Origin: Schmidtea polychroa
Taxonomy: Eukaryota
Reading direction: 5' to 3'
DNA length: 64,000 nt
Assembly: GCA_044892525.1 (NCBI GenBank)
Contig: CM097887.1
Coordinates: 74,028,001-74,092,000 of the forward strand
The number at the start of each line of letters is the position of its first letter. Position 1 is the first letter of the stretch. The position numbers were made by a program, and so were the translations under genes. Below, piece by piece: positions 6,892-48,902 of the stretch. The notes under the pieces are model-generated. The model worked only from the letters and a program-made list of their open reading frames with translations, was not told where the DNA came from and ran no database searches.

Positions 6892-8544
6892 GCCCATAAT
6901 CTAAAAAAAAATCAATAAATATATATTATAGGAAAAATGAAATTAAGTTAACATTGTCATATAAATGGCGACTCACCTCAACTGGTGTGCACACCAACGT
7001 ATATTATAGACAATGTTAACTTTCGCAGTTAGGTGTACAATGTAAATAAATCGTAGCCTTTGATTTAGCTCAGTAGAAATTATTTCCAACAGAAAACTAT
7101 AATTCCCAAATAGATTCCACCGCTATAAATAGATTAATTAGAAATTTAAAAATTAATTAATTATTCTTTAATTTTTTTTCAATTTTTTAAATATCTTTTC
7201 TTTTTAAATTTATTTTATATTTTTTTATCACTTTTTTAATTTTTTTGTACTTTTTAATAATTTTTATATATATTTTTTAATTTATTTTAATTATTTCAAC
7301 TAGGGGACCGAAATTAAAGACGGACAAATAGCATCTAGCGGTGGTCCACAAACCCGCTCGATTGCTCGATGATTATATTGTACACAGATACGCTAACTTT
7401 TCGCGAGTATTTACCCATTCGACACATTTCCAACTTTGATCATTCTGGTTTACACTGGAAACTGCACAAGGTGTTTAATGTTTATTACCTATAACCCAAC
7501 AAAATATTACTTTTTTAATTTGACATTGCGATTGTGTAACATCTAATTTAATAGTTTTGTGATTTCTTTTTTACAAGTTCCTGTCACTCTGTACGCGAAA
7601 CTATATATTAAATTTTAATTTTCCAGTTTTATATCAATGACAGAAATGCTGCCGTTGTAAACTATTTAACAAATTTCATCGGATGGTCATCTATTCAGAA
7701 ACATTTGTTCCAGATGTTTGCATTTGTCCAGTGTTTGATTTGTTTGGATCTAGTTTGGAAAATCTGTCTGACATTACTATCAGTGTTCCAGTTCCAAGAA
7801 CCTTTCCATTTTTCTTGAACCTTACCTTAAAGTTGTTTCTTCGAATCACAACATCTTGAAAATTATGCACATTATGCACATCCTTGCTGCAGCTGATCAA
7901 TAATGTGAATCCAAAAACAACAAGTGGTTAAACAACCCTTATCTCTCAGACATTGTGAGTGAGACTCTTGAATACTCTCGATCTCTTTTATTTTTCCCGA
8001 CCTGCAATTTATAAATTGATATCCAATCATGTCCTACCTGGCGCACTGAATCATTTGTTCGTTCGGACAGTTATGAGCTAAATAATTTTCGTTACAAAAA
8101 CATTTAATATTTTTCATATTTAAATTAAATTTTCTTTTTATATCGACTTATTGTCTTGAGTGAAATTCAATCAAATTCAATTCAACCTCTCCAATTGTTT
8201 CAAGTATATTTGGACCTTGATGTTTGACTTTGGCTGTCATCTCTTTAGGTAAAGTTTTATTGACGATGTTCCCCAATAGACATCCAGTATTGCCAGCCAA
8301 ATTTTTCATCTCCGATAAATAAATGATGATGCTTTTTCCAGCTTGAAATGACTTACTCATCAGTTCGTGGGAACAAACTTCTGAGAAATCACTAAATGTT
8401 CGAATTAATGCTTCCTTTGCTTATTCATGTTATTTCTTCATTTTGAAAAACCCCTTTCATTGAAATGAATGCCTTCCTTTTCAACGTATAGGGCAAAATC
8501 CTCTTTTTAATCATTATATCTATGGTATCGACATAATTAATCAA

Positions 8545-8738
8545 TGAATTTATTAAAAAGAGAACTTGAAGACTATAAATCAGTAATATATCGATGTTTG
8601 TTGATACTCACGAATTTTCGGCATTGCATTTTTCAAGAAAATTCACTTGAAAAAGGCAGTGCCGAAAATTCGTGAGTATCAACAAACATCGATATATTAC
8701 TGATTTATAGTCTTCAAGCTCTCTTTTTAATAAATTCA
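8545..8738. repeat. Near-perfect 194-bp palindrome (93-bp arms, 8-nt loop)
   Basis: Arm tgaatttattaaaaagag...cgaattttcggcattgcatttttcaag, loop aaaattca, then the reverse-complement arm. 3 mismatches counted by eye. Confidence 0.95.
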
Positions 8739-8789
8739 ATGGGAAAAATAATCAGTGGTGAAATTGGAAGAAATAAAAGTTCTTATAAT

Positions 8790-9880
8790 TGTTAGGTTCG
8801 ATGGGTATGTCTTCGAACTAACACAAAAATGTTCTATCTGACTCCACGTAAATAATTTATGCGCGTAGGTATAAATAAACAAGAAATATGATTTAAATAT
8901 TTATTTTTCAATTAAAAGATTATTCACACGTTTAAATAGATATATATATATATATAGGTACACCACGCTGCTTTCTCTAAGTATAGAAAACGGTTATTCA
9001 AACCGCCCTGAAGAGTGTTACTAAGTATCAAGGCTGGCCCTAAATGCGCCAACAGCCCGATATAGGTGAAAGGAAAAAGAGAACGGGACAATCACCAAAA
9101 TTTTCGCTATAGAGTTAACCCAGAAATTGGTTAACTCTTTTCAAATAATTATTGATAACGACACAACACAAAAATACGTGCTGACGTTATGATACCCCTT
9201 ATTTGAAATTACTTTAATTTGTTAAAATATAAACCGATTTGAAAATTACTTATAACTATTTAAATAATGATAAATACTAACTGATTTAATATCTTTACCA
9301 AATAACGTTATAATAGATAATCCACAAAATTAGCTTTCGATCCAATATTTCCAATACAAATTCTTCAATTTGATTGTCGATAAGACTAAATTCCCAAAAA
9401 TTCAAAACTAAATTTTCCTTTAATCGATGAAAATTATGCCAACTGTCACTTCGCCGAAAAATTAGTTTACGATAAAACCAAATTTCCCAAAATTCCAAAA
9501 CCTGACGAGAATTAGTTGGTTGCTAAAAATAGAATTGACTTCTTCTTCTCTAATTTCAGACACTGCGGTTTTCTGCCTTCTCACTTCGTCCCTCCTTCTA
9601 ATTTTTATCTATTATTTATACTAATTTATTTTACGTAATTCTATTAATAGTAATTGTTTAATTACTATTTTTATTATATATTTTAAATAATTTCTATAAT
9701 TCTATTTTTAGTAATTATTTATTACCAATTATATTTTAGTTTTAATTTTAGTATTTACTTTCTATTTTTGGTAATTTTAAAATACTATTTTTATTTTAAT
9801 CCTAATTTTGGTAATTAATTATTATTTTATTTATTATCTAATTTCGAACGTTTATTTCCGGTTCCTACTGAACCCCAACA
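8790..9880 (-). repeat. 3' LTR (1091 bp)
   Basis: Identical by eye to 22634-23738 except (TA)8 vs (TA)15. TGTT...AACA termini. Confidence 0.97.
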
Positions 9881-9882
9881 TG

Positions 9883-9892
9883 TCTTCCCCCT
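9883..9892 (-). promoter_or_regulatory. Polypurine tract (AGGGGGAAGA)
   Basis: Minus-strand purine run ending 2 nt before the 3' LTR. Confidence 0.8.
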
Positions 9893-10185
9893 AACAAGAT
9901 TTTCGTCCCGAAAATTAAAGCGGTAAAGGTAAGACAATTTGCAGCAGATACATAAAAAATAAAAATAAAATAAAATGAATCAACTGATTAAAATATATAT
10001 ATAAAGCAATCAAAGTCAAAATCAAAATAATCAAAAATTGTTAAACGAAATCAAGAATCAGATTAATCAAATGTTGTTCATAATGTCTATCAATTTGAAT
10101 ATCTGGATTGGATTGAGTTGTCGAAGGCGTTGGGATTGAGGACGTATAGCAAATTGCTAGGTCCATTGAACACATAGCCGAATTG

Positions 10186-12348
10186 CTAGTATTTTCTCCT
10201 TTTCATGACCTTGGCACTTTCGTTACGGATCCTTTGTTCTACAATGTCAGGTCTGTAACTGACCACCAAAGTCTCCCGTGTACTTACCTCTTTGTACACA
10301 ATTGAGGAGATGATATATGAGCCCTCATTAGCCTCCAATACTCCGTAATCGGGGAAATTGGATACGGCTACTTCATGGATTGGGCCTCCGTCGTATTCCT
10401 TGATACGCGGTTTCCATTTGCTGTCGGGTCTCTGCCACCAACTAGGATCTTCTCTGTCGAGATCTTCCCGTATTTTGATTGAGTTGCCCCTTCCGACGAA
10501 CTCGCCTTCCTTCACGATGATCGGCTCTCCTGTAATCGTGGGTTCACTCTTTGTTGCCAATATCTTGGTCAACGCGGGATCTGGTGGCTGATAGTGAGTT
10601 TCTAGGAGATTGTCATCCTCATCCTGGATGGATATCCTAGGCATTTTCTTTTTCGTACTCTTAGGAATCTCCTTTTTCCTTTTTGCGGAGATAGGGACAG
10701 TTTTCTCCTTGTCCTCTTTCTGGGGGAGTTTCTCCGTTGTTTTCTTTTTAAACTTCAAATCTTGTAGCTTAAGTAATGGTGCTACAGCTTGGGGTAACGT
10801 TCCTCCTTCTGCTCCTTGTTTGGGTTCACCCAACGGGGCCAATGCTTTCAGGATCTTGGTGACCCGTTCAACTAACTTTTCTGCTGGCTGTGGTTTGTCT
10901 ATTTCCATTTTAGCCGAATTCACCTCTCTACCGTCATTGGTAAGGGTGACTTGGAGGCAGTTATCGTCTGCACTCTCACAAGTGGCATAGTCGTCTTCAT
11001 CAGCAATTGAAATGGCTGGCGGCGACAAGGAATCTTCTTCCACTATTTTCAACAACTTTGACCTGGGGATATCTTCTTTCACATAGCTCTCCATAGCTAG
11101 AGGTTTCTGCCTGCTTGAGGTTCCGGGTTCCATCTGCTTTATTTGTGAAGACACCACCTCTTTCCGGGTGTCTGGTGAAATGTCATCAACCCAGATATCT
11201 CGTAAATTGTCGTAAATCTCCTTAATGGTTGTGACATCATTCTCCGTTTGTAGGTCCGAGAAGTGATGTGCCTCTTTACCGGTGACTGCTTTTGCTAGAT
11301 ATGCCAAACGGTAATACCCGTTGCATTTCTTTAGTTCCCTACTTTCGAGGCATTTAGCTGCGCCTAACTCACGAATTCCGAGTGCGCGCTGCATTGGGAA
11401 TCTGATTACTTCTAATAGGTCCTTTACTAGTAATCCCACGATGATCTTCCCATCGCAGATTTTTCTAATTCTTTCGGCACAGTCTTCTCCGTCGAACTGT
11501 CCTGTTATTTGTTTCTCGGTCATACCATGCGCATGCGATTGGTAATGTTTGACCTGTGCTCTGGGGGTGACTCTCGTGTTGAGTATTAGATCACCATTGA
11601 AGTGTGAGATCGAGATGGCCACGATTGCCGGTTTCAAAAATTGTCGTAATGTAGCGTAGTGAGCTGCTACGAAGATGGTGAGGTTATCCTCTTGTCTAGG
11701 GTCCATGCGCTGTCTAACGAAAGACTTGAATGTTTTAATGTCGTTATCGTTGACATTATATGTCCAGTTTGGGTCATTAACCCATCTCGTTTGTGTTTCT
11801 CTGTGAGGTTCCAGAATTTCCATTGCTATGATGGTATCTATACCTTCACATAACAGTGAGATGTTCTTTTCCCTTCCATCCCCGTTTTCTATCTCGAGGG
11901 TTGTGTGCTTTTGCAGCAAAATGGGGTTTGTGGCGCCAGGAACATAAACCGTAAATGGTTTGTTAATGGCGTGTATCCACAGGTGGTTGGTCAGACTATG
12001 TCTGCCAAACTCAGGCATGACATCGGTAAGCCTAATACTACCGTTATGCTTACCCGGGATTCTTGAGATGATCATTTGACGCTTTGGGGCCTCGTCAAAT
12101 TTAAAATTATTGGGTATGCCTGAACAATGACCGTAAAACCAGTGCCTTTGGCCTTTTCTACTTTGCTCCATAACCTGCTTCTCCAGGTTTTTATAAATAA
12201 GTTTTTCTTTTAGTAAGGTTGTAGCACGTATAATGCTATGTTTTCCTTGATATTGGGATATTGGGTGGCTCTGCATTCCTGAAATAAAAATCATTAACCA
12301 TAATATCAGATATACTGATATGCCATAATAGGCTAAAAAGATATGCAT
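10186..12348 (-). CDS. Accessory ORF (720 aa): N-terminal hydrophobic segment, DEDDh exonuclease-like domain (about 11190-11685, catalytic residues degenerate), long acidic/basic tail
   Basis: Intact 720-codon ORF inside the element. AISISHFNGDLILNTRVTP...VKHYQSHAHGMTEKQI...KICDGKIIVG...RLAYLAKAVTGK...ENDVTTIKEIY follows the ISG20/REX4 sequence pattern. Confidence 0.7.
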   Translation of the reverse strand: MHIFLAYYGISVYLILWLMIFISGMQSHPISQYQGKHSIIRATTLLKEKLIYKNLEKQVMEQSRKGQRHWFYGHCSGIPNNFKFDEAPKRQMIISRIPGKHNGSIRLTDVMPEFGRHSLTNHLWIHAINKPFTVYVPGATNPILLQKHTTLEIENGDGREKNISLLCEGIDTIIAMEILEPHRETQTRWVNDPNWTYNVNDNDIKTFKSFVRQRMDPRQEDNLTIFVAAHYATLRQFLKPAIVAISISHFNGDLILNTRVTPRAQVKHYQSHAHGMTEKQITGQFDGEDCAERIRKICDGKIIVGLLVKDLLEVIRFPMQRALGIRELGAAKCLESRELKKCNGYYRLAYLAKAVTGKEAHHFSDLQTENDVTTIKEIYDNLRDIWVDDISPDTRKEVVSSQIKQMEPGTSSRQKPLAMESYVKEDIPRSKLLKIVEEDSLSPPAISIADEDDYATCESADDNCLQVTLTNDGREVNSAKMEIDKPQPAEKLVERVTKILKALAPLGEPKQGAEGGTLPQAVAPLLKLQDLKFKKKTTEKLPQKEDKEKTVPISAKRKKEIPKSTKKKMPRISIQDEDDNLLETHYQPPDPALTKILATKSEPTITGEPIIVKEGEFVGRGNSIKIREDLDREDPSWWQRPDSKWKPRIKEYDGGPIHEVAVSNFPDYGVLEANEGSYIISSIVYKEVSTRETLVVSYRPDIVEQRIRNESAKVMKRRKY

Positions 12349-12471
12349 GAGTCTTCTAAAAGATCTACATATGCTGAATTTTAATGCTACCTGGAGCTCT
12401 ACGTAAATATAGATTTTAATATATATATAAATATTTATATATGATTTTTCCCTCGGGGGAGTCTGTAATTG

Positions 12472-13527
12472 TCATAATTGCGACATCAGTACTCCATCGT
12501 AAGCCCTTATGGCTTGTCTAAAATATAGCTTGGTCCAAATACCCATAGCTATCAGTGTAGTTACTAGCGATAGTACGGCCGATACCGTAATCCATACCCC
12601 TATGGGTATTTTCAGAATATATCCAACATTAAAGTTCGTGATGGCATTACAGTCACAACAGTTTGTCAGATTTGGGGGCGTTTGGCAAGATATTTGTTGG
12701 ATAGGTGGCAACTGTCTAAGATGTTGCCACATTGCGGGATGTATCACCATGTTCTCCTTGACGACTTTTGGTGGTGTTTTCGTTATAACAGGTTGTCTCA
12801 GAGGTAATATCTCCTCAAATACCTCGAACCACCTATCGTCCTCCCGTTTCCTCGGACTATAGTATATAACTAGAACCGAATATTCTACGGACTGATTTAG
12901 ATACATTTCTTGGGAGGGGGAGTTCTGATCTAACCATAATGTTCCTCTCGTGGTAGATCCGTCTAGAATGCTGATTTTCACCTTCTCCTCCCTGTTAATT
13001 TGCTGGCTAAACTTTACTTTCTCCTTCTCGTAGGATATCGATATGCGATTTGTGAAATCTGCCGTCCGTAGGATCCAATTAGATACGTGATAGGTATACC
13101 ACCCACTCTGATATAACTTTGATGCTGCAATATGCAGTTTATAATCCGTCTCGGCTTTTAAATCATATAAATCCCACTCTTTTTCTTCTGAATCGAGTTG
13201 GCGGACCCGCAAGTACTTGTTGTAGAAATGTAAACTGAATTTTGTGGCATTATCGCACGTTGTCAGAATGCTAATTCCGTTATACGTTCTTATAAAGTGT
13301 AAATGTTTCACTTGCATCGCCATAGGCTGAAAGTATGCCTTTCTATCCCTTTTTGCCATTGCCAAAGTCATCATACAGCTTATTATTAACAAAAAGGTTA
13401 CCGATTTTGGAACACCCCTTGATCTCAATGGGTATCGGTGTTCTTGTGGTTTTTCGGTAGTGTTTGGTTTCACTTGTTTTTCTGGTGCTTTTACTTTTGG
13501 ATTTCCAGAGGCTCCCTTTGTTGAGAT
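12472..13527 (-). CDS. Type I membrane protein (signal-like segment 13404-13354, FN3-like ectodomain motif, TM 12603-12535), in frame with integrase behind a TAA
   Basis: RYPLRSR then SVTFLLIISCMMTLAMA|KRDRK; LYDLKAETDYKLHIAAS; Cys cluster CQTPPNLTNCCDC; TM IGVWITVSAVLSLVTTLIAMGIW. The frame is open from the integrase stop onward. Confidence 0.75.
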   Translation of the reverse strand: MSTKGASGNPKVKAPEKQVKPNTTEKPQEHRYPLRSRGVPKSVTFLLIISCMMTLAMAKRDRKAYFQPMAMQVKHLHFIRTYNGISILTTCDNATKFSLHFYNKYLRVRQLDSEEKEWDLYDLKAETDYKLHIAASKLYQSGWYTYHVSNWILRTADFTNRISISYEKEKVKFSQQINREEKVKISILDGSTTRGTLWLDQNSPSQEMYLNQSVEYSVLVIYYSPRKREDDRWFEVFEEILPLRQPVITKTPPKVVKENMVIHPAMWQHLRQLPPIQQISCQTPPNLTNCCDCNAITNFNVGYILKIPIGVWITVSAVLSLVTTLIAMGIWTKLYFRQAIRAYDGVLMSQL

Positions 13528-14600
13528 TTAGCACTTTTTACACCGATTAGCATGCACCATTATTGGTTCTGCTTTTCTGTTGGCCACCAGTTGTAATATG
13601 AGATTTGTATCCGTGGTTCTCAATACCTCATATGGCCCTTTGAAATTTCGCATGAGTTTTGGTGATAAGCCTTTCTTGTTATAATGACTTTCCAACATCA
13701 CCTGGTCTCCAACCAATATACCATGATCCTTGGCTTTTCGGTCATGATAATCTTTGGATGCCTCCTGATTATATTTTATACTGAGGCCTGCTCTAGCCCA
13801 TGCTTCCTGCATTCTTTCCCGCATTTCCATTAGATAATCTTGCTGATCCAAGTACTGTGTTGCTTTAGGAAAAAACAACAGATCTACTGGCATTTTACTT
13901 TGTCTCAAATACATTAGGTAAAATGGTGTTTCACCTGTTCCTTCGTGTACTGCATTTCTATATGCAAATAAACAGGATGGAATGTGGATATCCCAATCCG
14001 TTTGCCCTGAATTTACATATGATGCTAACATATTAGCTAATGTTCCATTAAATCGCTCTACTAGCCCATCCGTCTGTGGGTGATATGGGGAAGTGTTCAA
14101 CTTTAAAACTCCGAAATAATCATTTATTCCTTTGAGCAAATTACTCATGAAATCAGCTCCCCGATCCGTTAATAGCTTCGTAGGTACTCCATACCTAAAG
14201 ACAATTTGTTCAACGAAAATTCTAGCTATCGTATCAGCTTTGTGATTAGGTATCGGGTAGGCTTCTGGCCACTTAGTCAAGTAGTCACAGAACACTAAGA
14301 TGTACTTGTTTCCGCTATTGGATTCTTTAAATGGCCCCAACACGTCCATTGCCGTCATTTCCATAGGTGTAGATGGTACTGGCATCGGCTTCATTGGCAC
14401 GTGTGGTTTCTTTCCGGTATTTCTTCTGGTGATACAGATCTTACATGTCTGACATCAGGTTTTAACTTCTTGTTTCATGCCGGGCCAAAAATATTTTTGT
14501 TTTAACCTTGACAATGTTTTTCTGGATGACAGGTGGCCTCCTAAGGCTCCATCGTGATACTGCAACATGAGTGCTTCACGGTATTTCTTAGGGACCATTA
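13528..14600 (-). CDS. Integrase (HHCC zinc finger, DDE core, GPY/F), split by an in-frame TGA at 14455-14457
   Basis: YHDGALGGHLS...EVKT*CQTCKIC; TAMDVLGP, LTDRGADF, DGLVERFNGTL; FKGPYEVL. 14454-14401 is an open 18-codon in-frame link. Confidence 0.95.
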
Positions 14601-17600
14601 CAACATTGTCTCTTACATCTGAATATTTGACTAATCCTTCCTCCAGCACAAACTTGTCCTTATTCTTTTCCCAGTATTTCGTGAATTCTGTGGGCACGTA
14701 TTTCGCTTCTAAGGCTTGTCGAATGACATTGATTTCTTCGTCAGCTTTTTGTGCCTCCATTAAATCAGCTAGCCGGTTGGCTTCTCGAGTCAGTGTGAAG
14801 ATAGTCCCTTCGAGACGTCCTTCCTTCACATCTTCTGCCTCCTCCTCCTGGTCCATTCTTGATAAAGCATCTGCATTTCCATTGTGATCTCCTTTTCTAT
14901 AATGGATTTCTATGTCATATGGCTGTAGAATTAATGCCCATCTGACCAGTTTTGATGTATCCATTGTGTGTTTCGTCAACCACTGTAATGGTCTATGATC
15001 GGTATACACTATGATCTTTCGACCCCATAGATAAGTCCTAAACTGGGTTATTGCATACACAATTGCTAAAGCCTCTAGTTCTATCACTGCGTAGTTTCTT
15101 TCATGCGGTTTTAATCCTCTGCTAGCGTATGCAATTGCATACTCATCTCCTAGGTCATCTCTCTGACCTAGCACAGCACCTATGCCCCGAGTGCTGGCAT
15201 CTGTCATAACCAAAAATTGTCTCTCAAAGTCTGGAAATCGCAATATAGGTGGCTTGATGAGTTTTTCCTTGAGCATATCAAATGCTTCTTGCTGTTCTGT
15301 TCCCCACACAAATTTGACATTTTTGCCTTCTAACTGCGTGAGTGGAAAAGCTATAACCGAAAAGTTTCTAATGAATTTTCTGTAGTATCCAACTAGACCT
15401 AAAAACCCTTTGATATGTTTAACGGTTTTAGGCTCCGGGAAATTCTTTACCTTTTCGACATTAGCTGGGTCGGGTTTAACCCCGTCTCGTGATATGATAT
15501 GGCCAACATATACCACTTCTGGTTCGGCCCATTTACATTTGGTCGGTTTCACTTTCATGTTGGCGTTAATCAACCTCTTGAACACATCTTCCAAATGTTC
15601 CAAGTGTTTTTCCAAATTTGGCGAGAATACTATAACGTCGTCAATGTATACCATCGCATGATGTACATCCATGAGCATCAAATTCATTGCTCTTTGAAAT
15701 GTGGCTGGAGCTCCGGTGAGTCCAAATGGCATTACGTTATATTCGTAATGACCCATACTCGTAGAAAACGCTGTTATTGGTATAGTCTCATCTTTTAGCT
15801 TAATTTGATAAAATCCCTTTTGGGCGTCCATTACTGAGAAGAACCTAGCGTTTCTCATGCGTCCATAGATATAATCTAACAATGGCAATGGATGGCTATC
15901 TTTGCATGTTGCTTCGTTAACCATGCGATAGTCGTTACATAATCGTACTGATCCATCCTTCTTGGCCACCACTATCATTGGTGATTGATATGGTGATTTA
16001 CTATGCCTGATTATGCCATGTTTTAACATCAGTTTCACCTGTTTATCTACTGATTCCTCCAGACTGAATGGAATACGGTATGGTCTCAACTTTATAGGTT
16101 TTGTATTGGTGAGAACAATCTCATGTTCTAACAAATTTGTCTTTCCCAGATCATATTCATGTTTCGCGAATACCTGGTCATATTTCCTCAATAACATATT
16201 TACTTGAATATTTTCTTTTCTAGTTAGCACTTTGCTGTTTACTGTAGGTGCATCGTAGTACTCAATGTCTGGATCTCTTTCTTCTGCCTTTACGGTGAGT
16301 ATTGACCCTTCTCCCGTAGCTTGTGGTTCGTTTTGTTTCCAGATTCTGCCCACTCTGGTATCTGGATATAAGTAAAGTGGTTTAATGTCCAGATTGGCTA
16401 CCCTGATTGGTATTCTGCCATTGACTATTAAACCTACGCTATGCGTTACTGGTATATTGTATTTCTCCGAGAATTTTTCGTTTGGTTCGAATACAACTTC
16501 ACCTTCCCAATTATTGCTTGTAGCTACAAAGCAAACTGTTTCCGCTCTGGGTGGTATGATAGTTGTATGATCTATATAAGCTGTATCATCATTGTAAATT
16601 TTTCTCTTTTTACCTCTCGCTCGGATTAACAATCCAGATGCACAGTCGAATACTACTCCTCGTAGTCTTTTTAGGATGTCCATACCCAATAGGCATTCGG
16701 CTGGGAGACTTCTCATCACTATGATGTCGTGATGGAGTTCCTGGTCGCATAGCTTAATCTGGCAGGATAATGATCCTATTACGTTTAATGAGGATCCGTT
16801 CGCTCCTGTTAATTTTACTCCTGCCGGTTTTAGCGACTGCAGTTCATGATGGTTTAACAATTTAGCTTCAATTATGGTACCGTCTGCTCCTGAGTCTATC
16901 ACCGCATTAACTGTATGTCGGTTCACTCTTATTTTTATCATTGGTTTTTTTTCCAAGTTCACTGGGTTATTGACCATCAAGATAGTATCGTGCGAGATAC
17001 CGATTGTATTGGCTCTCGTTTGTTCTGCTTCCAGTAATTCAGGATCACTCAGTTGGGGATTATACTCTTTGAATTTAGCTTTAATTGACTCTAACACTTC
17101 CTTTGGATAGTGCACTTTAAGTAATTCTGGCAATGTTGAGCATGTCAAATTATTAAATATGGTATCTTCACCGATTTTCCATTGGTGTCGTCCTGTTCTG
17201 AGTGTTGTTTCCCTCGAGTGTTCCCGCCCTTCGTTTGGTGCGGATGGTAAACTCCTCAAAGTTGGCAATTGTACGTATCTTGGACTTCTCTTGAATCTGG
17301 GTGACCTTATGTCGAATTTTTGGTCGGAACTGTCATATTCTCCTTCTGAGGACTGTTTTCTCACATAGATTTCCTTTGATTGGTCATATGGAGGAAGATA
17401 TTCCTTGAATCTCGATTTTCTTTGTTGCTGATTCGGTTTTTTGTTGTAGTTCTGTTTTCGTGATTGATTTGATCTTGAAGATGTCTCACGAGAGCCTCCA
17501 TTACCTCCTCCCTTTGAATTGTTATCGTCCCGATAACTCGAATACTCCTCCATTTCTGTTCCAATTACTTCATGTTTGACCAAATGTTTCTGTCTAATTT

Positions 17601-20600
17601 CTTTAATTTCCTTTCTGTGATGTTTGAATAATGCAAACTCTGCACACATAGGACATAGTCCTAATAGCAATTTCCATGACCATCCCCCAATTTTGAATAT
17701 GCTATATGTTGACATCAGTTGTGTAATTATCAGCTTTAAAATTACAAATATTGCGTAAATTCCTGAACAACCAGCAACGAAAATACCAAAATTGGTAAAT
17801 CGTCCCCATATTTTCATCATTACGTTCTTTGCTGCTTCTTTATAGTGTTCCGGTCCAAATAATAGATTGTAGTCTGGTCGTATCAAATTATCATGATAAA
17901 TTGTTCTTATAATTTCCGTGATACCTCTGTCTCTAATTTGTGGGAATAGCAATGTCCTTCTTGCTTCCTCGATATCGTCGGGAGTGTAAATCCCTCCTTT
18001 TGCTAAATCGTCTAATGACTTAAATTCCAGATTATCCTTTAATTTAGTTACCTCCAGGGTCTCTACCCGTTGTGTAGATGGTTTTCTTTCCGGCAGAGAT
18101 ATCCACATGTCATTTATTTTATATAATGGTGATATTGCCGGGTTGCATATAGCTGGTTGAGGTTTAGCGTTTTCCTCAAGTAACTTTCTGGTTACTGGCA
18201 TAACAAATCTCAATTTTCCTTGGTAAGACACTGGCAGTTCTAGAGTGCATTGATTAAATCTGGCTAATTGTACTTCCACTGGTTTACACTCATAGCTATA
18301 TATAGCTTCTCCCATGATTCTGCCAAACATTCCATCTTCCAATAACATTGGAGTAACCAACTCTGGGTTAACGATAGATATTGCTAGTCTATTTCGGACT
18401 ATTTCACGGTTTAGCTTGCAATCGTTTAGTATCACCTCTTGATACATATCTTGCATTTGTCCTTGCAAATCATGATATAAATAATCTACCTTATTATTTA
18501 TATAATTCGTGATTTTGATATCCTTTACATGTAGGACCTTGGAATTCCGGATATATTCTCTGGACAGGAAAATTCCTTTGTAGTTCGTCTCGTATACTCT
18601 TTTCCCACATTTAGTCCTTTTATCTTTTCGGACAAATCGAATTGCTTCCGTCTTGTCTTCCGATATCAATACTAGAGGTGTGTTTTCCTCTCCGATATCT
18701 TCCTTCTCTTGTTTGTTGATTTTCTTCAACGTTTTTGCTTTATCCCAAACCTTTTCTGGATTCTGGGAGTCCCGATATTTAGTTCCATTTAATTTTCTAA
18801 AAGGAATTTTCTTGAGGAAAGCCAACTCACAATGATCTCTCATTTGTTCGTAAATTAACGTAGTGGTTCCCGTTTTACAACTACCGAACTTGGCATTGCA
18901 TTGCGGATGTGCCATCAATTTTCCTGTGGCCACATCGAATGTTCCCTCGTATTCTCGTAGCTCCACTGAGTAATCTTCTATGTCTACCACATAGGAAACT
19001 AAATTGCTACCGCGAATTTTCTTTCTACCTTCGCATGTTCCGTCTGAAGCGATTGTTCCTCCTCGGGTGATTGTTATTCCCAAGGTTTTCCCAATTTCTG
19101 CTGAAATTGATACCTCGTTGTCTATCCTCACACTTCCTTTTCGAAATGCATCTAAGCAATCTTCGGGCATTATGTTTACCGGCCTTGGTATTAATGTTGC
19201 GGTTAGAAAAGCAGAATAGCTATTACTACCGCAATAATATTCGAACGTAGCTCTCTGAACTCTACATTCCTTTATCGTGGTTCTATAAAATTCACTCTCT
19301 TGGTAGACATAATATTCTACCTTTTCCCCTTGATGAACCTTCTCGGGGTACGCCTCTTTGCACTCAATTGCATCTACTAGCGAATATACCCGAGATAGTT
19401 TAGGGTTTCCACAGTCAAATACTGTTAATGAATTTGTTTGTTTTAATATGCCCATCATCACTAGGAACATCAGGATCATGCTTGTCATGTTTCCTGTGCC
19501 TGGACTACCATTATTTATGGCTTCTTCTACGACTTCAAATCGTGGTTTTGGAATCGTTTCTTTTTCCCAAAATTTGTTTACGGTCATCCATACCTCCAGG
19601 TAATAATCTACCATTTCGACTATTTGATCGATTTCTCGTTCTATAAGCCTTTTATCATCCCCTATCCGGGCCAAGGCATTTTGAATTAACAATGATAAAG
19701 ATGTTACCACTTTCCCTCTTGTTAACCCTTGCTGCACGAATGCTTCTATGACATCCTGGGTATCTCTTGTTGTTACATCTTTGGATACTCTGTCCATTGT
19801 CTTCTTGACCTCTTTTGTTATTTTCTTTACTTCGATCCCCTTGATTTTTGGAATTCTCCATTCGGGCCTGATAATCCCGATCATTTGTTGTATACGTTGC
19901 CACAATAACGACCTTTCTGCTGTTGTCTCATCTCCCGCCTGGTCGTCCATTTCTTGAGCTATCCCTGCTAATGTTTTTAACTGAATTTTCCGAATCGTTT
20001 CCGGATTTAACTGCTCCTTGGGTGGAGGTTTCATCTGATCCTTTCTAGGACGTCCTCGTGCATCTTTTTTCACTTTCTCCGGAGGTTTTTCATTCTCCAG
20101 ATTTGTTACTGCTTGTGACGTAGTAGCTCCTACGTTTGTTTCTCCTGGGTTTAATCTGATGTATTCTGAGAAGTAATCTTCCTCGTCAATGTCCACCATT
20201 TGACAGGGATTAATTTCCTCTAGTCTTATTTCCTCAATTTCTTCCGCAATTTGGTTTGCTATATCTGGCAGTCTCATTAATGACCACTGGGACTCTGGTG
20301 GAGTTACTGGGATGATCATTACCGTGGTTGTTGCCAGCGGTAGACAACCCACATCCACTAAATATTCATCGTCATCCACTTGCCTGCCATGGACCATTAT
20401 CAGGAATATACCTGTAGTCTGATCGGTGGCAATTACATCTCTCCTCAATATTTTAACCTTGATATAGCAATTATAAATCATTGTTAATGGTTCTTTTCCC
20501 ATCATTCGCACGTCTAGATTAATGTTGCCTTGTCTATCAGGCTGACTTCGGATAGCTTTCCCATTTTTCCTCATCAGCGCTTCAATTTGCGTCTGGAATG

Positions 20601-21882
20601 GGCTTGTTTCCTTTACCACTGGTAGTATAAGTGGAATTATTGCTTCCAACAAATCTACTGGTATACGCAATACTAACATCCAGTCAAGTATTTCCTTTAT
20701 AGTTTCTCCATCTCGTGGAGATTTCTGCAATTCCAACCCTAGTCGCTGGGTTAATTGTTGGGTTTCTTCCAATCTCTCTATTTCCATTTGAGTAATCAAG
20801 AATACGCTATCTTGATCCATTACTGCTACTGGCTTCTGTGCTCTCTTTGCTATGAGCTTTGTCACTCTACCTGGGAGTATCCCGTTCTGTAGAAGTGTTT
20901 GATTTGCTTCTAATTTTACTCCACATAAGTATAAGTCATATCCTTGATGCTTAATACTTGTCAATGTTTCCTTTAATTTATCGGCTCGACTTCTTACATT
21001 TATATCGAGATTATACTCTTTATCCTGTGGGAGTTTTATATTGAGCTGGGCATCTTGGAGATCCCACTCATGTTCCAAGAGTTTTCCTAATTTCCTTAGG
21101 ATTTTGTACGTGTCGTTATGATACTTTGGATCATCTTCGACCTGCGATATCAGTTTTACTACTGTATCGATTTCGTGAATTTTAATTTCTGTTTCTCCCA
21201 ATTTTCCCAATTGTCTGGCCAGCTTCTGCTGGTACTCATATCTGGAATCCACCAGTTTTAAACATTTTGTTAGGGTATCTGACCCTTCTTTTACCTTTGC
21301 TTTCCCTGTCAAGGTTCTATCGAACTCGCTTAGTATGGTGGCCATACTAGGTTCATCATCGGAACTCTCCTCTGATTCCGTTTCCTGAAGGTCCTCTCTA
21401 ACGGAGTCCTTTTTTCTGAGATACTCATCTCTTCCAACTTCTACCATGAAGATGGTGCCTTCTTGGTCGGTCAATCTAGCCAACCTATTCTTTTCTTCCT
21501 GGATTTCCATTTCCAGTTGTTGCAGATACGTTAACCCTTGATCCTGGTTAACCATGAAAGTTGTCTTAGACTTGTTCACATTACCCTTATCGGTATTTTT
21601 TTTGAACTGACTCGTGTTTCCACTCTGGTTCTGAGGACATGACCTCATCATATGTCCGAATTTCCCACATCCGTGACATTTTATCTTTCCTGATGAATTT
21701 ACATCATCTCTTTTGATTGTACTAAAATTATTGCTGTTCTGAGGACTTCTAGTCTTGCAGACCGCAGCAACATGTCCCTTTCGCTTACATTTTTCGCATT
21801 GCAAATTCTGCACTCTACAATTTTCCGCACTGTGGTTATTCCGTCCACATTTGGTACATTGTATACTTTTACGATTGTCCAT
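14455..21882 (-). CDS. Gag(NC)-X-Env-Pol polyprotein: 3 intact CCHC knuckles, UBL, unknown region, glycoprotein, aspartic protease (VIDSGA, about 16900), dUTPase-like linker, RT (VYIDD, about 15640), RNase H (TDAS, about 15200), start of integrase
   Basis: 2475-aa ORF with canonical Gypsy motifs PYRIP, LCNDYR, MPFGL..APATFQRAM, YIDD, GFLGLVGYYRKFI, TDASTRGIGAVL, TDHRPL, NADALSR. Confidence 0.95.
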   Translation of the reverse strand: MDNRKSIQCTKCGRNNHSAENCRVQNLQCEKCKRKGHVAAVCKTRSPQNSNNFSTIKRDDVNSSGKIKCHGCGKFGHMMRSCPQNQSGNTSQFKKNTDKGNVNKSKTTFMVNQDQGLTYLQQLEMEIQEEKNRLARLTDQEGTIFMVEVGRDEYLRKKDSVREDLQETESEESSDDEPSMATILSEFDRTLTGKAKVKEGSDTLTKCLKLVDSRYEYQQKLARQLGKLGETEIKIHEIDTVVKLISQVEDDPKYHNDTYKILRKLGKLLEHEWDLQDAQLNIKLPQDKEYNLDINVRSRADKLKETLTSIKHQGYDLYLCGVKLEANQTLLQNGILPGRVTKLIAKRAQKPVAVMDQDSVFLITQMEIERLEETQQLTQRLGLELQKSPRDGETIKEILDWMLVLRIPVDLLEAIIPLILPVVKETSPFQTQIEALMRKNGKAIRSQPDRQGNINLDVRMMGKEPLTMIYNCYIKVKILRRDVIATDQTTGIFLIMVHGRQVDDDEYLVDVGCLPLATTTVMIIPVTPPESQWSLMRLPDIANQIAEEIEEIRLEEINPCQMVDIDEEDYFSEYIRLNPGETNVGATTSQAVTNLENEKPPEKVKKDARGRPRKDQMKPPPKEQLNPETIRKIQLKTLAGIAQEMDDQAGDETTAERSLLWQRIQQMIGIIRPEWRIPKIKGIEVKKITKEVKKTMDRVSKDVTTRDTQDVIEAFVQQGLTRGKVVTSLSLLIQNALARIGDDKRLIEREIDQIVEMVDYYLEVWMTVNKFWEKETIPKPRFEVVEEAINNGSPGTGNMTSMILMFLVMMGILKQTNSLTVFDCGNPKLSRVYSLVDAIECKEAYPEKVHQGEKVEYYVYQESEFYRTTIKECRVQRATFEYYCGSNSYSAFLTATLIPRPVNIMPEDCLDAFRKGSVRIDNEVSISAEIGKTLGITITRGGTIASDGTCEGRKKIRGSNLVSYVVDIEDYSVELREYEGTFDVATGKLMAHPQCNAKFGSCKTGTTTLIYEQMRDHCELAFLKKIPFRKLNGTKYRDSQNPEKVWDKAKTLKKINKQEKEDIGEENTPLVLISEDKTEAIRFVRKDKRTKCGKRVYETNYKGIFLSREYIRNSKVLHVKDIKITNYINNKVDYLYHDLQGQMQDMYQEVILNDCKLNREIVRNRLAISIVNPELVTPMLLEDGMFGRIMGEAIYSYECKPVEVQLARFNQCTLELPVSYQGKLRFVMPVTRKLLEENAKPQPAICNPAISPLYKINDMWISLPERKPSTQRVETLEVTKLKDNLEFKSLDDLAKGGIYTPDDIEEARRTLLFPQIRDRGITEIIRTIYHDNLIRPDYNLLFGPEHYKEAAKNVMMKIWGRFTNFGIFVAGCSGIYAIFVILKLIITQLMSTYSIFKIGGWSWKLLLGLCPMCAEFALFKHHRKEIKEIRQKHLVKHEVIGTEMEEYSSYRDDNNSKGGGNGGSRETSSRSNQSRKQNYNKKPNQQQRKSRFKEYLPPYDQSKEIYVRKQSSEGEYDSSDQKFDIRSPRFKRSPRYVQLPTLRSLPSAPNEGREHSRETTLRTGRHQWKIGEDTIFNNLTCSTLPELLKVHYPKEVLESIKAKFKEYNPQLSDPELLEAEQTRANTIGISHDTILMVNNPVNLEKKPMIKIRVNRHTVNAVIDSGADGTIIEAKLLNHHELQSLKPAGVKLTGANGSSLNVIGSLSCQIKLCDQELHHDIIVMRSLPAECLLGMDILKRLRGVVFDCASGLLIRARGKKRKIYNDDTAYIDHTTIIPPRAETVCFVATSNNWEGEVVFEPNEKFSEKYNIPVTHSVGLIVNGRIPIRVANLDIKPLYLYPDTRVGRIWKQNEPQATGEGSILTVKAEERDPDIEYYDAPTVNSKVLTRKENIQVNMLLRKYDQVFAKHEYDLGKTNLLEHEIVLTNTKPIKLRPYRIPFSLEESVDKQVKLMLKHGIIRHSKSPYQSPMIVVAKKDGSVRLCNDYRMVNEATCKDSHPLPLLDYIYGRMRNARFFSVMDAQKGFYQIKLKDETIPITAFSTSMGHYEYNVMPFGLTGAPATFQRAMNLMLMDVHHAMVYIDDVIVFSPNLEKHLEHLEDVFKRLINANMKVKPTKCKWAEPEVVYVGHIISRDGVKPDPANVEKVKNFPEPKTVKHIKGFLGLVGYYRKFIRNFSVIAFPLTQLEGKNVKFVWGTEQQEAFDMLKEKLIKPPILRFPDFERQFLVMTDASTRGIGAVLGQRDDLGDEYAIAYASRGLKPHERNYAVIELEALAIVYAITQFRTYLWGRKIIVYTDHRPLQWLTKHTMDTSKLVRWALILQPYDIEIHYRKGDHNGNADALSRMDQEEEAEDVKEGRLEGTIFTLTREANRLADLMEAQKADEEINVIRQALEAKYVPTEFTKYWEKNKDKFVLEEGLVKYSDVRDNVVMVPKKYREALMLQYHDGALGGHLSSRKTLSRLKQKYFWPGMKQEVKT
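17626..19488 (-). CDS. Embedded envelope glycoprotein domain, chuvirus (Jingchuvirales) G / herpes gB-like class III fusogen
   Basis: Internal signal-like MILMFLVMMGILKQTNS|LTVFDC, Cys-rich ectodomain, GEAIYSYECKPVEV...CTLELPV...RFVMPVTRKL...CNPAISPLYKINDMW, GGIYTPDDIE, C-terminal TM FGIFVAGCSGIYAIFVILKLII. The family call is recalled motif similarity, not a search. Confidence 0.8.
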
Positions 21883-21927
21883 AATTTTCCTACTGGTACA
21901 ATCTTTCGCTATATGCCCTTTTCTATG

Positions 21928-22533
21928 TCAATTGAAACACTCTACCGGTGTTCTTTCACTGTTTACCAGGAACATGGTTGACTTTTCCAAGCTGCTTTCA
22001 ATTACGACAGCTTTCCGTGTCAATTCGTCAAAATCGTCGCTAGTATGTAATATTAGAGCGTTCCTCATTGTAGGAGTAAGTCCTGCCCATAGCTGATCCT
22101 TAACTAACAATTCTGTTGGCTTTGCCCATGTGGTTTTTGGTCCAAATGCTCTTTCAGCAATTAAAGATAGCTGGTGTGCAAATTCCCCCACATGTTCATT
22201 GGCATTCTGTTTTCGATGGTAAAATTGTTGTCTAAATATTCTTCCCGCATCTCCGGGCAATATTCGAGCAGTCATTTGTTCTCTCATTTCGGCCCATGTT
22301 TTCGGTACTTGAGCAACTGGTAATGCCATAATGTCATTATATTTTTCTCTTGCCAGCCCCTTCAAATATATAGGCAGCCTTTGTATCATGATATTATCTG
22401 GATAGGCGTATGCTTTGGCCATCTGATAATATTCAGACATAAACTCTGGGAATTCTCCCGGATCACCGCTGAATGCCTTTACGGGCAGAGCGGGATATCT
22501 GGCAAATGCATTTACATTAGCTTCCTCTGCCAT
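21928..22533 (-). CDS. Gag capsid domain (retrotransposon gag), ending at an in-frame TGA inside the first zinc knuckle
   Basis: PVKAFSGDPGEF...LPIYLKGLAREKY...RKQNANEHVGEFAHQL...DQLWAGL. Reading on through the stop gives CFN*HRKGHIAKDC, in frame with 21882. Confidence 0.9.
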   Translation of the reverse strand: MAEEANVNAFARYPALPVKAFSGDPGEFPEFMSEYYQMAKAYAYPDNIMIQRLPIYLKGLAREKYNDIMALPVAQVPKTWAEMREQMTARILPGDAGRIFRQQFYHRKQNANEHVGEFAHQLSLIAERAFGPKTTWAKPTELLVKDQLWAGLTPTMRNALILHTSDDFDELTRKAVVIESSLEKSTMFLVNSERTPVECFN

Positions 22534-22610
22534 TTGATTTTCCAGTTTTACTCTGGTTCTAGTTCCTAACGCTATTTTGTTTTAATTCAATATATACCCG
22601 CTGATAATTT

Positions 22611-22630
22611 GAATCACGTCGGGCTCACCA
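22611..22630 (-). promoter_or_regulatory. Primer-binding site complementary to the 3' end of tRNA-Trp
   Basis: Minus strand TGGTGAGCCCGACGTGATTC, 3 nt after the 5' LTR. The complement GAATCACGTCGGGCTCACCA matches the metazoan tRNA-Trp 3' end (…AATCACGTCGGGGTCACCA) with 1 mismatch. Confidence 0.85.
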
Positions 22631-22633
22631 AAA

Positions 22634-22781
22634 TGTTAGGTTCGATGGGTATGTCTTCGAACTAACACAAAAATGTTCTATCTGACTCCACGTAAATAAT
22701 TTATGCGCGTAGGTATAAATAAACAAGAAATATGATTTAAATATTTATTTTTCAATTAAAAGATTATTCACACGTTTAAAT

Positions 22782-22816
<35 letters not shown>

Positions 22817-23738
22817 TACACCACGCTGCTTTCTCTAAGTATAGAAAACGGTTATTCAAACCGCCCTGAAGAGTGTTACTAAGTATCAAGGCTGGCCCTA
22901 AATGCGCCAACAGCCCGATATAGGTGAAAGGAAAAAGAGAACGGGACAATCACCAAAATTTTCGCTATAGAGTTAACCCAGAAATTGGTTAACTCTTTTC
23001 AAATAATTATTGATAACGACACAACACAAAAATACGTGCTGACGTTATGATACCCCTTATTTGAAATTACTTTAATTTGTTAAAATATAAACCGATTTGA
23101 AAATTACTTATAACTATTTAAATAATGATAAATACTAACTGATTTAATATCTTTACCAAATAACGTTATAATAGATAATCCACAAAATTAGCTTTCGATC
23201 CAATATTTCCAATACAAATTCTTCAATTTGATTGTCGATAAGACTAAATTCCCAAAAATTCAAAACTAAATTTTCCTTTAATCGATGAAAATTATGCCAA
23301 CTGTCACTTCGCCGAAAAATTAGTTTACGATAAAACCAAATTTCCCAAAATTCCAAAACCTGACGAGAATTAGTTGGTTGCTAAAAATAGAATTGACTTC
23401 TTCTTCTCTAATTTCAGACACTGCGGTTTTCTGCCTTCTCACTTCGTCCCTCCTTCTAATTTTTATCTATTATTTATACTAATTTATTTTACGTAATTCT
23501 ATTAATAGTAATTGTTTAATTACTATTTTTATTATATATTTTAAATAATTTCTATAATTCTATTTTTAGTAATTATTTATTACCAATTATATTTTAGTTT
23601 TAATTTTAGTATTTACTTTCTATTTTTGGTAATTTTAAAATACTATTTTTATTTTAATCCTAATTTTGGTAATTAATTATTATTTTATTTATTATCTAAT
23701 TTCGAACGTTTATTTCCGGTTCCTACTGAACCCCAACA
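22634..23738 (-). repeat. 5' LTR (1105 bp)
   Basis: Direct repeat of 8790-9880. The 14-bp length difference is entirely in the TA microsatellite. AATAAA on the minus strand at 22744-22749. Confidence 0.97.
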
Positions 23739-45539: not shown

Positions 45540-48482
45540 CCTATATTTACCATTACCAGTCAAAATGATTGGTTGATTAATACTATGAAAGTGGCTTTGC
45601 TAATCAATAATAATGCTAACTGGCTATTTGTAAACTACAATAAATATTTAAATTAATAAGAATAAATGAAAATAGAGACTTATTGTTTCGATGAGATAAA
45701 TAATTACCGCTGAGAAACTATAAATAAATTGGTCCAGATATGATGTAATGTTTATTTAGTTGAAAAATAAAACCAAATGATTTTAATTTATAAAAAATAG
45801 GAACAGAGCAATAATGTATCTACAAAACTGAACAGAAAATAGCTATAGGTCTTTTTTGTTTGCCTTGCTAGCAAAATAATTACTTTACAAAATCTTTACA
45901 ATTAAAAATTTTGTTTGTGAACACTTTCCGCACACATGTAATTTACACGAAGAACAAATATTCGAAGTTGTATTATTCTTGCAGTATCCTATTTGACACC
46001 ATTTTCGCACAATACATGAATTTTTAGCAATTGTCTCTTCTTCTCTTTGAGGGACAGGGAGACTTGTTTTCAAATTTTGATATTCTCTGGTAAGTTCATT
46101 GCTAGTTAAAACATAAAATCTTTTGTATATATGTTTTCTCCAGTCGTTGCCTTATACAACACCCAAACATTTATCTCAGCTAGATCTAAAATGTTAAAAA
46201 ACACTTGGAGTGGCCATCGCCTTGAACCAGATTTAACGCTATATTTTCTTGCCATTTGGTCAGATGTATTCATGCCAAATTTAGTTTTATTATAATATTC
46301 AACAGTCTCGGGCAAACATTTTCCACTTTTTCAATTTTGACGGATTTGTGTTTTGTACTCAGTAAAAGTACTTTCTTTGTTCGCTTGCTTTTGTAAATTG
46401 TGAGAAGCATTCCTTCGGATTTGTATAAAGATGTTGAAAAGCGAGGCATGTTATCTTTCTTTGTTTGAAAAATTTTGGTAATTCCTTTCTGTTGGCGCGT
46501 ATAGATCCAACTATTGAAGTTTTTAGTTAAAATTTTAGATGCTATTGGTAAACTTGTAAACAAATTATCTGTCATAACACATCGTCCTTTCATAATATAC
46601 AGTTCCACAAGTTTTAGCACAACATATTGACCTAGAGGAACTGATGATTCTCGTACCTCGGCTTTTTCGAGAAATGGAAACCCATTTATAATAGATTTCC
46701 TTCTGACATCTAAAGCCAGCCAAAATGTTATGCGAAATTTATTTGGTTTGTTGAGCATATATTGTGTGAATCGACATCTAGTTCATGAACGGTAAAATTT
46801 TCTCCTGGTTTTATAACAGTTTTGGGTGTTTTGTATAAATTTGTTCCATATTGTTGATATCAACGCTGAATTCTGTTGTAATCTTTGACTTCTTATACTT
46901 TCTTATCAAAACGAAGAAATAATTTCTACTCATCACTGTACTAAAAAACTTGGACCCCATTGCTTATTCCATAAATAACAAGCCTTCAAGTTTCTGACTT
47001 CATATGCCCCACGAGCATATAGAATCCCAATAAAAGCTAGAAATTTTTATTTTGTAAGTATCCATGAATCTCCTAAGACTCGAGAGGTTTCTTTTTCTGT
47101 ACCAATTCTTATATATTCTACAATTGAGTAACTACACGTTTCATAATATTTCTCTTTGCATATCCTGTAGGACCGGATACATCTTTGAAAATAGATTGAA
47201 TTGGATTTCTTCCACTACCAGAACCAGCTTGTAATTTTTCCCACATTGTACCATCTGTTGAAATTTCGTTATGATCGTCTTGTTTATGTTCATTATTTTC
47301 ATACTCAGAGCTTGAGAGTTGTATGTTTCCTTTTCTTTTACGAATATTCAAAATATTTTCATAATCACTATTATTTTCTATATCAGTAGACTTGCCGATA
47401 ATCTCTTCATCGATAAAAGTACTACTATTTATGGTCTCAAAGGGTATATTATCTTTACCACATGGTCCACTTTCATCATTCAGTAGTTCGCTTTCACTAT
47501 CATACAGGTCATCGTCTTCAATATCAGAATATTCCATTGGAATGTCATTTATTTTCCCCAATAATGTGGCACTATTTTTCAGTTTATCCATTTTATGGGA
47601 TCGATGCTAAAATTAGAATTATTTGTGAAAATAATAGTCTAACTCAGGGGTAGGGAACCTTTTTATTTCCGTAGGCCACATTGAAATCTGTCGCCTCCGA
47701 ATGAGGCCGCAGTCAAAAAGTATTTTAACATTAATTAATTTCATTTTAAATCTTTTATTTATATACAGTTAGTAATTAAAACAATATTTATAATTAGTCT
47801 CCAGATTTAAAAAAATGCAGCTATACGAAATTTTCTGGAAAATTTTTATTATTTTTGAATCGAAAAATTGATGCAAATAATTCATCATTTCACAAATGAG
47901 AGCTCAATAATCTTATTTATTCGTCTATATAAGTTTTGTATTTATGGGTGTGGATGATTGACTTTTATATTTAGTTCTTTGTACTCGGCGGGATGCTTGT
48001 ACAGTAAAGTATATATACAGTTCGGAAGTTACAAGTATTTTTATTTGTAAATTCTCAAAATTTATGGTTTTTTATATAAATTAAGATTTATTTCAATAAG
48101 GCTCCGGAGGCCGCACATGAAGCTCCGGGAGGCCGCAGGTTCCCCACCCCTGGTCTAACTAAACAGCTAATAATTCATAAAAGGTAACTTTTATTTCTCT
48201 TACCTAAAATATATCAATATATCAATATCAAAGTTGTTTATGTTTATTGTCGTCGGCCGCTTTGATAATGGCACCAGTTAATGAGTGGTGTCGGTATAAA
48301 TAGGTATAAGACAGAATTATTTTTCTTAGTATTAAAATTGAAAAATAAAATTATTCATAATATTTACTACTTATAAAAGTCATCTATAAAAGTCATGACA
48401 TTATTTTTTTTTGATATACCTATTTTTCATATAGAATTTTTACCATAAACCAATCATTTTGACTGGTACTGTAAGACTAGTG
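45540..48482 (-). mobile_element. Decayed piggyBac (PGBD-like) transposon
   Basis: Fragments 47118-47591, 46270-46758 (VMTDNLFTS), 46106-46315 (YNKTK.G..DQM, RRWPLQVFFNILD) and 45885-46073 (Cys-rich tail). 21-bp perfect inverted repeat at 45554-45574 and 48448-48468. Right end CTAGTG|TTAA; left end degenerate. Confidence 0.9.
47645..48152. mobile_element. hAT MITE nested in the piggyBac 5' region
   Basis: TIR CAGGGGTAGGGAACC / GGTTCCCCACCCCTG (14/15); perfect 8-bp TSD GTCTAACT at 47637-47644 and 48153-48160. Confidence 0.92.
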
Positions 48483-48902
48483 TTAAAATTGTTACAATAA
48501 AATTCGAAATATTACAAATGAAGTCTTTCTTGGATTAAAAAAAATCAAAGTCCCTATTATTAAACTATAAATCAATTATTTATGAAGTCAAAAGCGGACT
48601 TACCACTTGAACTGAAACGACAGATTCATGAGAAAACCAAAAAAATGATGTATAAAGTTCAAGTGAGCTTTCTGTCGCACATTGAAACTTCTATGATGGT
48701 AGAAAAATTGTTCAGTGACCTCCATGACATCAGATGGTATAGTTTAAGTGATGTATTTGATCAATTATGGGAAAGTCAAGAAATCAGGTTAAAAATTTCA
48801 CTATAAATTGGTCAGCTCAACAAGTGATTTTAAGTTTTATAAATTATTTTTCCGACAATATTACACGACATTAAATTTCAGATTATTTTTAACCAATAGA
48901 AA

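Follow-up and report, generated by a model that had tools for sequence, protein, structure and literature searches.

The polyprotein of an errantivirus family in Schmidtea polychroa ends at a UGA codon that is likely to direct programmed type I readthrough in the clade to which the family belongs (the A clade), because the stop, the hexamer behind it and an in-frame open spacer leading into the next gene, ORF2, are conserved there. The copy described here lies in a window of 64,000 nucleotides, the whole stretch of DNA that was analysed. From comparison of the sequences, we consider it moderately probable that this readthrough is a derived, minor source of a fusion protein in the A clade, added to an ancestral expression of ORF2 from a spliced or subgenomic RNA. 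The junction consists of the following features:

12463..12474, minus strand: polyprotein stop TGA CAA TTA CAG, a candidate readthrough signal in type I context
12277..12471, minus strand: spacer of 195 nt (65 codons), open and in frame with both ORFs
10186..12276, minus strand: ORF2, 696 aa from the ATG at 12276

The element that carries this junction was delimited from its LTR pair, its ends and its Pfam domains:

8790..23738, minus strand: Ty3/gypsy LTR retrotransposon with envelope, of the GAG-ENV-POL errantivirus type, 14.9 kb
22634..23738, minus strand: 5' LTR
8790..9881, minus strand: 3' LTR
12475..22533, minus strand: single polyprotein frame, broken in the window copy by stops at 21930, 14457 and 13530

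The LTRs are 98.6% identical, and the element has TG...CA ends and a 4-bp target duplication, TAAT. A primer-binding-site-like stretch after the 5' LTR (22630-22611), found as the same motif in sister families, presumably resembles tRNA-Trp. From 22581 to 10186 the minus strand is a single reading frame interrupted by five stops. Pfam domains follow in the order gag, zinc knuckles, fusion glycoprotein, protease, RT, RNase H and integrase, and then comes a membrane-protein tail; the fusion glycoprotein, between gag and pol, is chuvirus/gB-like (PF24664, E 5e-87). LTRs and the gypsy-type PR-RT-RH-IN order are both present, and on the features tested the element is a member of the gB-type errantiviruses. 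Platyhelminth GAG-ENV-POL errantiviruses with an HSV/gB-type ENV, Smed_errantivirus_1-6, were described by Chary and Hayashi (eLife 2026, PMC13524379). As far as the passages of that paper go, our element shares their gene order, env type and similar size (14.8 kb is listed for 1 and 2), and its ENV matches that of Smed_errantivirus_4 at about 67 of 100 residues, counted by eye. Next to the 3' LTR, on its outer side, lies an almost perfect inverted repeat of 200 bp with 96-nt arms (8542-8741), probably a MITE. Elsewhere in the window lie fascin-domain coding exons (969-2025), a piggyBac/IS4-like transposase fragment (PF13843, 46270-46782) and a vitellogenin/apolipoprotein-like gene in one open frame of 5,277 codons (Vit_open_b-sht, VWD, C8). 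The last (24728-45043 and 48481-64000) is within a 15.5-kb duplicated block whose copies are 99.8% identical and 23,753 bases apart; no comparable long frame exists in the second copy, which is either a recent broken duplicate or an assembly artefact.

A preliminary description of the window had taken the ORF upstream of the stop for a separate accessory gene. It is instead the C-terminal end of one gag-env-pol polyprotein, because the TAA at 13530 is private to the window copy (sense in 28 of 29 other copies, a gap in the remaining one) and unbroken frames exist: 4 of 131 matches hold a polyprotein frame of 3,366-3,369 codons, which equals the distance from 22581 to 12475. On this comparison, the upstream stops at 21930, 14457 and 13530 are decay of the window copy. 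The TGA at 12474, which closes the 3,369-codon gag-env-pol-membrane frame, was also considered as a premature-stop artefact; this was rejected, since unlike those three stops it is present in every copy. The end of the polyprotein runs through a hydrophobic signal-like segment, an Ig/FN3-like domain, a transmembrane-like helix and a short tail, of which two parts were placed on the window:

12790..13056, minus strand: Ig/FN3-like beta-sandwich in the ectodomain of the tail protein, weakly assigned from an AF2 model
12535..12603, minus strand: hydrophobic helix, from sequence and a predicted helix, then a 20-residue tail to the TGA

The tail model has a pLDDT of 63-84 in blocks up to residue 180 and lower values beyond, with 46 over the whole model. 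Its best fold match reaches Z 8.8 and many FN3 rows stand at Z 7-8; the FN3 look-alikes of the domain score 0.87-0.90, with low recognition. As modelled, the helix is probably transmembrane. Pfam gave no match for the membrane tail or for ORF2 of the window.

At the junction itself, the minus-strand reading CAA TTA TGA CAA TTA CAG ACT given earlier is confirmed, with the TGA at 12474-12472, as are the 41 in-frame open codons that follow it up to an ATG at 12348. The same open frame extends past 12348 to a second ATG at 12276, the start common to all homologues, and in full the open frame behind the TGA is 761 codons long. The claim that this context is the same as that of tobacco mosaic virus (TMV) holds for the nine bases CAA UUA CAG, which are identical, but not for the stop, which in the relevant part of PMC13517186 is UAG for TMV and is UGA here. 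CAR YYA thus stands directly behind the stop as CAA TTA, and the strict UAG stop of Beier and Grimm is not present. Of the TGA triplets in the window, 2 of 1,633 on the minus strand and 4 of 1,322 on the plus strand are followed by CARYYA. In dinucleotide shuffles the 41 codons are free of stops in 2.4% of cases and the full 65-codon spacer in 0.15%. Judged by these counts, the junction is a real, non-random feature.

Conservation was followed first in the family of the window copy, family A, where 79 other loci were found and six were dropped as not spanning the junction, leaving 73; here as in the other families and clades, copies are related, so that counts are not independent. TGA and CAATTA are unchanged in all 73 copies, which answers the question of conservation raised in the preliminary description. 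Few nine-base windows elsewhere match this invariance: none of 536 in the tail, three of 185 in the spacer and one of 467 in ORF2. In 65 of the 73 copies the spacer has no stop and stays in frame, and its sole widely common indel is a 3-nt insertion (57/73). Shared variants divide into synonymous and non-synonymous as 1:7 in the spacer, versus 72:48 and 53:17 in the flanks, and pN/pS for the spacer within family A exceeds 1, a value from 8 shared variants only. The pattern suggests that the spacer is constrained mainly at the nucleotide level.

Older relatives in the A clade carry the junction further back. With L135 as query, 23 older loci were collected (67-100% identity to L135), and the stop could be aligned in 14 rows, among which L183 and L194 represent a single element and L180 duplicates L181. 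The motif TGA-CARYYA stands in 10 of these 14, once as CAACTA, which still fits the rule; the four exceptions are one changed stop, two cases of TGA-TAA and one CAATTG. Stop, hexamer and in-frame spacer are kept across older subfamilies at 70-94% DNA identity, as would be expected of a readthrough signal, and the ORF2 proteins of the window and L178 are 51% identical. Older spacers have a length divisible by three in 10 of 12 rows; four of the 12 are wholly stop-free and eight contain stops, and most rows with spacer stops are also decayed in their coding flanks. For the window and L178-L180, the spacer frame has no stops versus 8-9 and 3-5 in the other two frames (shuffle P 0.0015-0.0095). 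Spacer pN/pS is below 1 in 7 of 7 subfamily pairs (0.46-0.90), and after random substitution at the observed divergence the frame is still open in 8-16% of trials. Such weak constraint on amino acids suggests that an open frame matters more than the residues of the linker, as for a tether or for protection from nonsense-mediated decay.

Sister families in the same genome end their polyproteins in other ways. Integrase of family B (12 loci) is 86% identical to that of family A; in RT, identity to A is 82% for A2 and about 75% for B and C, and in gag it is 57% for B and C and 40% for D and E. The polyproteins of B and of C (15 loci, with the polyprotein end visible in six) close with TAG GGGG, once TAA GGGG, those of D-I with double stops and that of K with TAA. 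From stop to conserved ATG the distance is 195 nt in A. In B it is 200 nt, which puts the ATG out of frame; in C it is 201 nt and keeps the frame, but the spacer there holds several stops, one of them six codons before the ATG. The TGA-CARYYA motif is absent from all families examined, B-K, and none of these can read through in frame; the motif is therefore not needed by the group. Ranks of identity, rather than a tree, suggest that it is derived in the A clade. An open frame before the ATG can also arise otherwise: family B (L075:2271-2525) has no readthrough signal, yet in most of its 12 loci 85 open codons lead into the ORF2 ATG and, lying in the -1 frame, share 52 nt with the end of the polyprotein. 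Minus-one frameshifting in family B was rejected as a candidate, no in-phase slippery heptamer being seen by eye. Three family B copies stand head-to-tail with 14.2-kb spacing at G000:C2:100871906-100904732. Family D includes copies with internal deletions: L034:4944-5688 joins pol pieces directly to ORF2, and L035:2-3944 passes from gag to the tail with most of env and pol missing.

What nearly all families share is the region immediately before the ORF2 start, which in the window reads:

12274..12298, minus strand: splice-acceptor-like site, with TTAAT, a T-rich tract, CAG (ending at 12279) and the ATG at 12276

TTAAT, a T-rich tract and YAG precede the ORF2 ATG in nearly all families; the YAG lies 2-8 nt before the ATG in A, B, C, F, G, H and I and further off in J, K and D, and by eye the layout could not be made out in L036, a D-family row. 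Within family A, the YAG is kept in 73/73 copies and the ATG at 12276 in 72/73, and across the A clade the acceptor AG persists while the codons over it change, with a loss in L198. The start Met is invariant in seven aligned proteins, including four outside homologues, and in-frame stops lie just upstream of the ORF2 start in families C, F, G, I and J. The site before ATG 12276 fits UUNYAG, given as the flatworm acceptor motif in the part of PMC12582326 that treats it, where it is also suggested that retrotransposon transcripts may receive a spliced leader. Candidate splice donors are present in the 5' leader of the element. Because families incapable of readthrough nearly all keep UUNYAG and the ATG, a separate spliced ORF2 RNA is probable. 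The preliminary description had set such an RNA against readthrough into ORF2; it is probably real as well. Of the readthrough proposal, the conserved signal in the clade stands, but as the way in which ORF2 is made readthrough is not supported.

Among the contig matches listed (n=15; assembled contigs from 4 runs, none recorded as RNA), no joint was seen at 12279. Nor did a processed genomic copy of ORF2 appear, 0 of 100 exact matches to the ORF2 start being non-T four bases upstream, the one position tested. Together with the motif and the open frame kept in the clade, this last count would fit readthrough as the main or only ORF2 route in the A clade, with the acceptor-like site a relic. 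Processed copies are rare in any case, however, and the acceptor AG and ATG 12276 are invariant like the stop context and have survived amino-acid changes; the same Met, moreover, starts the four closest outside homologues. We regard readthrough as the main or only route as very unlikely, and continue with the two-route account, in which spliced ORF2 RNA comes first.

The spacer also contains possible RNA structure and a further start codon:

12449..12460, minus strand: GC hairpin TCCC-CCGA-GGGA, family A-specific
12304..12374, minus strand: run of small conserved hairpins, from paired cells and compensatory pairs
12346..12348, minus strand: ATG 12348, a possible minor start, in 73/73 copies and 9/9 aligned rows

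The GC hairpin pointed out earlier is indeed present at 12460-12449 but is not conserved: it is among the most variable parts of the spacer within family A and is absent from the seven older relatives aligned, and as a readthrough stimulator it was rejected for this lack of conservation. Folding of the whole spacer is no better than that of shuffles (z -0.99 and -0.72). Five helices, one of them short and just upstream of the run, have 92.8% of 138 cells paired and four compensatory pairs in six sequences; these helices are suggestive only, because the structure was derived from the same six related sequences. Short hairpins occur at similar places in families B and C. In families F-I (L118-L131), a GC-rich hairpin, in one case with a TTCG loop, lies directly before the acceptor-like site, 40-90 nt from the ORF2 ATG and at about the position of the A/B/C hairpins; it is a candidate for a conserved splicing or trans-splicing element. 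Rfam gave no match near a gathering score, whether to a known RNA family or to an IRES. Other candidates were tried and set aside: a small intron within the spacer, as the GT of A, B and C is absent from older A-clade rows; an alternative acceptor at the CAG after the hexamer, which is CTG in four older rows; and a sigma-70 promoter scan, which is irrelevant and matched at chance level.

As the constraint on the spacer falls largely on nucleotides, the hexamer could belong to another cis-element. Taken to its end, this would mean that there is no meaningful readthrough, that ORF2 comes only from a spliced or internally promoted RNA, that TTATGACAATTAC is a DNA or RNA cis-element (a promoter, a factor site or a 3'-end signal) and that the openness of the frame follows from a structured spacer that changes slowly. 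Such a reading would account for synonymous sites that are far less diverged in the spacer than in the flanks, for conserved hairpins with compensatory changes and for the Leu codon preceding the stop, which is likewise invariant in the aligned A-clade rows; it also sits well with all other families managing without the motif. It leaves unexplained, however, why an exact type I hexamer stands in register behind the stop, why length changes come mostly in threes and why only one frame is open, and on balance we hold it, although it is the main rival, to be rather unlikely.

Translation of the spacer need not involve readthrough: ribosomes could re-initiate at ATG 12348 or scan to it, or the CAG at 12463 could serve as a splice acceptor, and the product would be an N-terminally extended, membrane-anchored ORF2. 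The complete retention of ATG 12348 and the 24-residue hydrophobic leader that it opens speak for this, but the ATG sits within one conserved stem, the 41 open codons before it are left unexplained and the CAG is variable in older rows as noted above; we consider this the case only with a very small probability.

ORF2 encodes an N-terminal domain, a DEDDh fold (about 11685-11173), a low-complexity linker and a C-terminal region. Its exonuclease-like character, proposed from the first reading of the window, is borne out by predicted structure, which has an ISG20/REXO4-type DEDDh fold. Confidence in the AF2 model is high over about residues 41-395 (numbered from ATG 12348), and in Foldseek the model matched ISG20L2 (E 7.9e-9), ISG20 (rmsd 2.5 over 164 columns) and also Pan2. 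The full DEDDh set of catalytic acidic residues and histidine is not found in the window ORF2. The first acidic motif is absent in families A, A2, B and C and in three outside homologues (window, L178, L075, L097, P0002, P0003 and P0005) and present in families D, F and I (L039, L118 and L129). Because it is missing in the A clade, the ORF2 product of the readthrough clade is a probable pseudo-nuclease. Database homologues of ORF2 number 76, with lengths of 95-1,113 aa, and none is long enough for a polyprotein fusion; a word-indexed search returned none, and none was found among viral contigs. The N-terminal domain (window about 11790-12230) has a high-confidence model with only weak cupin/2OG-dioxygenase-like fold matches (E about 1e-4 to 1e-3).

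In the account that we prefer, the main and ancestral route would be translation of ORF2 from its own processed RNA, as all related families appear to do, this RNA being cis-spliced or leader trans-spliced at the UUNYAG just before ATG 12276. In the A clade, a minor route may exist beside it: a few per cent of ribosomes would pass UGA-CAA-UUA on the full-length RNA, cross the 65-codon spacer and finish ORF2, giving a polyprotein-ORF2 fusion. After cleavage, the fusion would yield a membrane-anchored FN3/TM protein carrying the DEDDh-fold domain. Readthrough may also keep the region behind the polyprotein stop translated, and hence less exposed to nonsense-mediated decay; a link between readthrough and nonsense-mediated decay is known from MuLV. 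A bolder extension, improbable but worth stating, is that ORF2 is expressed in the manner of a downstream gene in a host operon, with a spliced leader added by trans-splicing behind a conserved array of hairpins, and that one clade, in which the nuclease domain has lost its first catalytic motif, has recently gained a plant-virus-type leaky stop. A second, membrane-tethered pseudo-nuclease would then be made with gag-env-pol and could be packaged into the particle, where it might, for instance, act as a shield that binds RNA and counters small-RNA defence. If true, an animal retrovirus-like element would hold a type I readthrough signal whose recent gain can be traced among sister families of one genome.

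The closest precedent is SIRE1 of soybean, a copia element (Sirevirus) whose pol-env stop codon was reportedly found by Havecker and Voytas in 2003 to be read through, and is said to use CARYYA. Its pol and env are separated by an in-frame stop, as cited in a passage of PMC2194720, and our element is likewise an LTR retroelement with one in-frame stop between pol and a downstream accessory ORF. The two differ in that SIRE1 is a plant copia element with an env-like downstream gene, whereas the element here is an animal gypsy type that stops with UGA and has its env within the polyprotein; its downstream gene encodes a DEDDh fold and has, in parallel, an acceptor and start codon of its own. With the TMV signal UAG CAA UUA CAG the junction shares, beyond the nine bases after the stop, that no conserved stimulatory hairpin is needed, to go by the relevant parts of PMC13517186 and PMC9272376; apart from the stop, the difference is that the candidate signal here is known from sequence only. 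According to the sections on this motif in PMC13517186, a 2026 review, CAR YYA acts in plants, mammals and yeast, without downstream structure and also with UGA, and type I readthrough is found in plant viruses and not known from animal viruses. A DEDD-superfamily exonuclease as an additional ORF behind pol has a parallel in the LTR retrotransposons Juno and Vesta of bdelloid rotifers, which carry a DEDDy-type ORF3 (Rodriguez et al. 2017, PMC5408684, in the passages on these elements). That ORF3 is RNase D-like with intact acidic residues, whereas the fold here is ISG20/ISG20L2/Pan2-like (DEDDh) and, unlike in Juno and Vesta, the A, B and C clades are without the first acidic motif. PMC5408684 has no occurrence of readthrough terms. 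In the main text of PMC13524379 the words 'readthrough', 'read-through' and 'exonuclease' do not occur; its passages gave no mention of the junction, of ORF2 or of the FN3/TM tail, and its supplements were covered for taxon names. More generally, a literature search whose reach left out most subscription papers found no description of the junction.

The accessory module of such errantiviruses, an FN3/TM tail with an ISG20-like gene, likewise has no description in the literature searched. The motif occurs in a recently active animal errantivirus family of about 100 copies, with sister families in the same genome that are without it. This provides a natural comparison for how a recoding signal arises, and for what it adds when the downstream gene has its own start.
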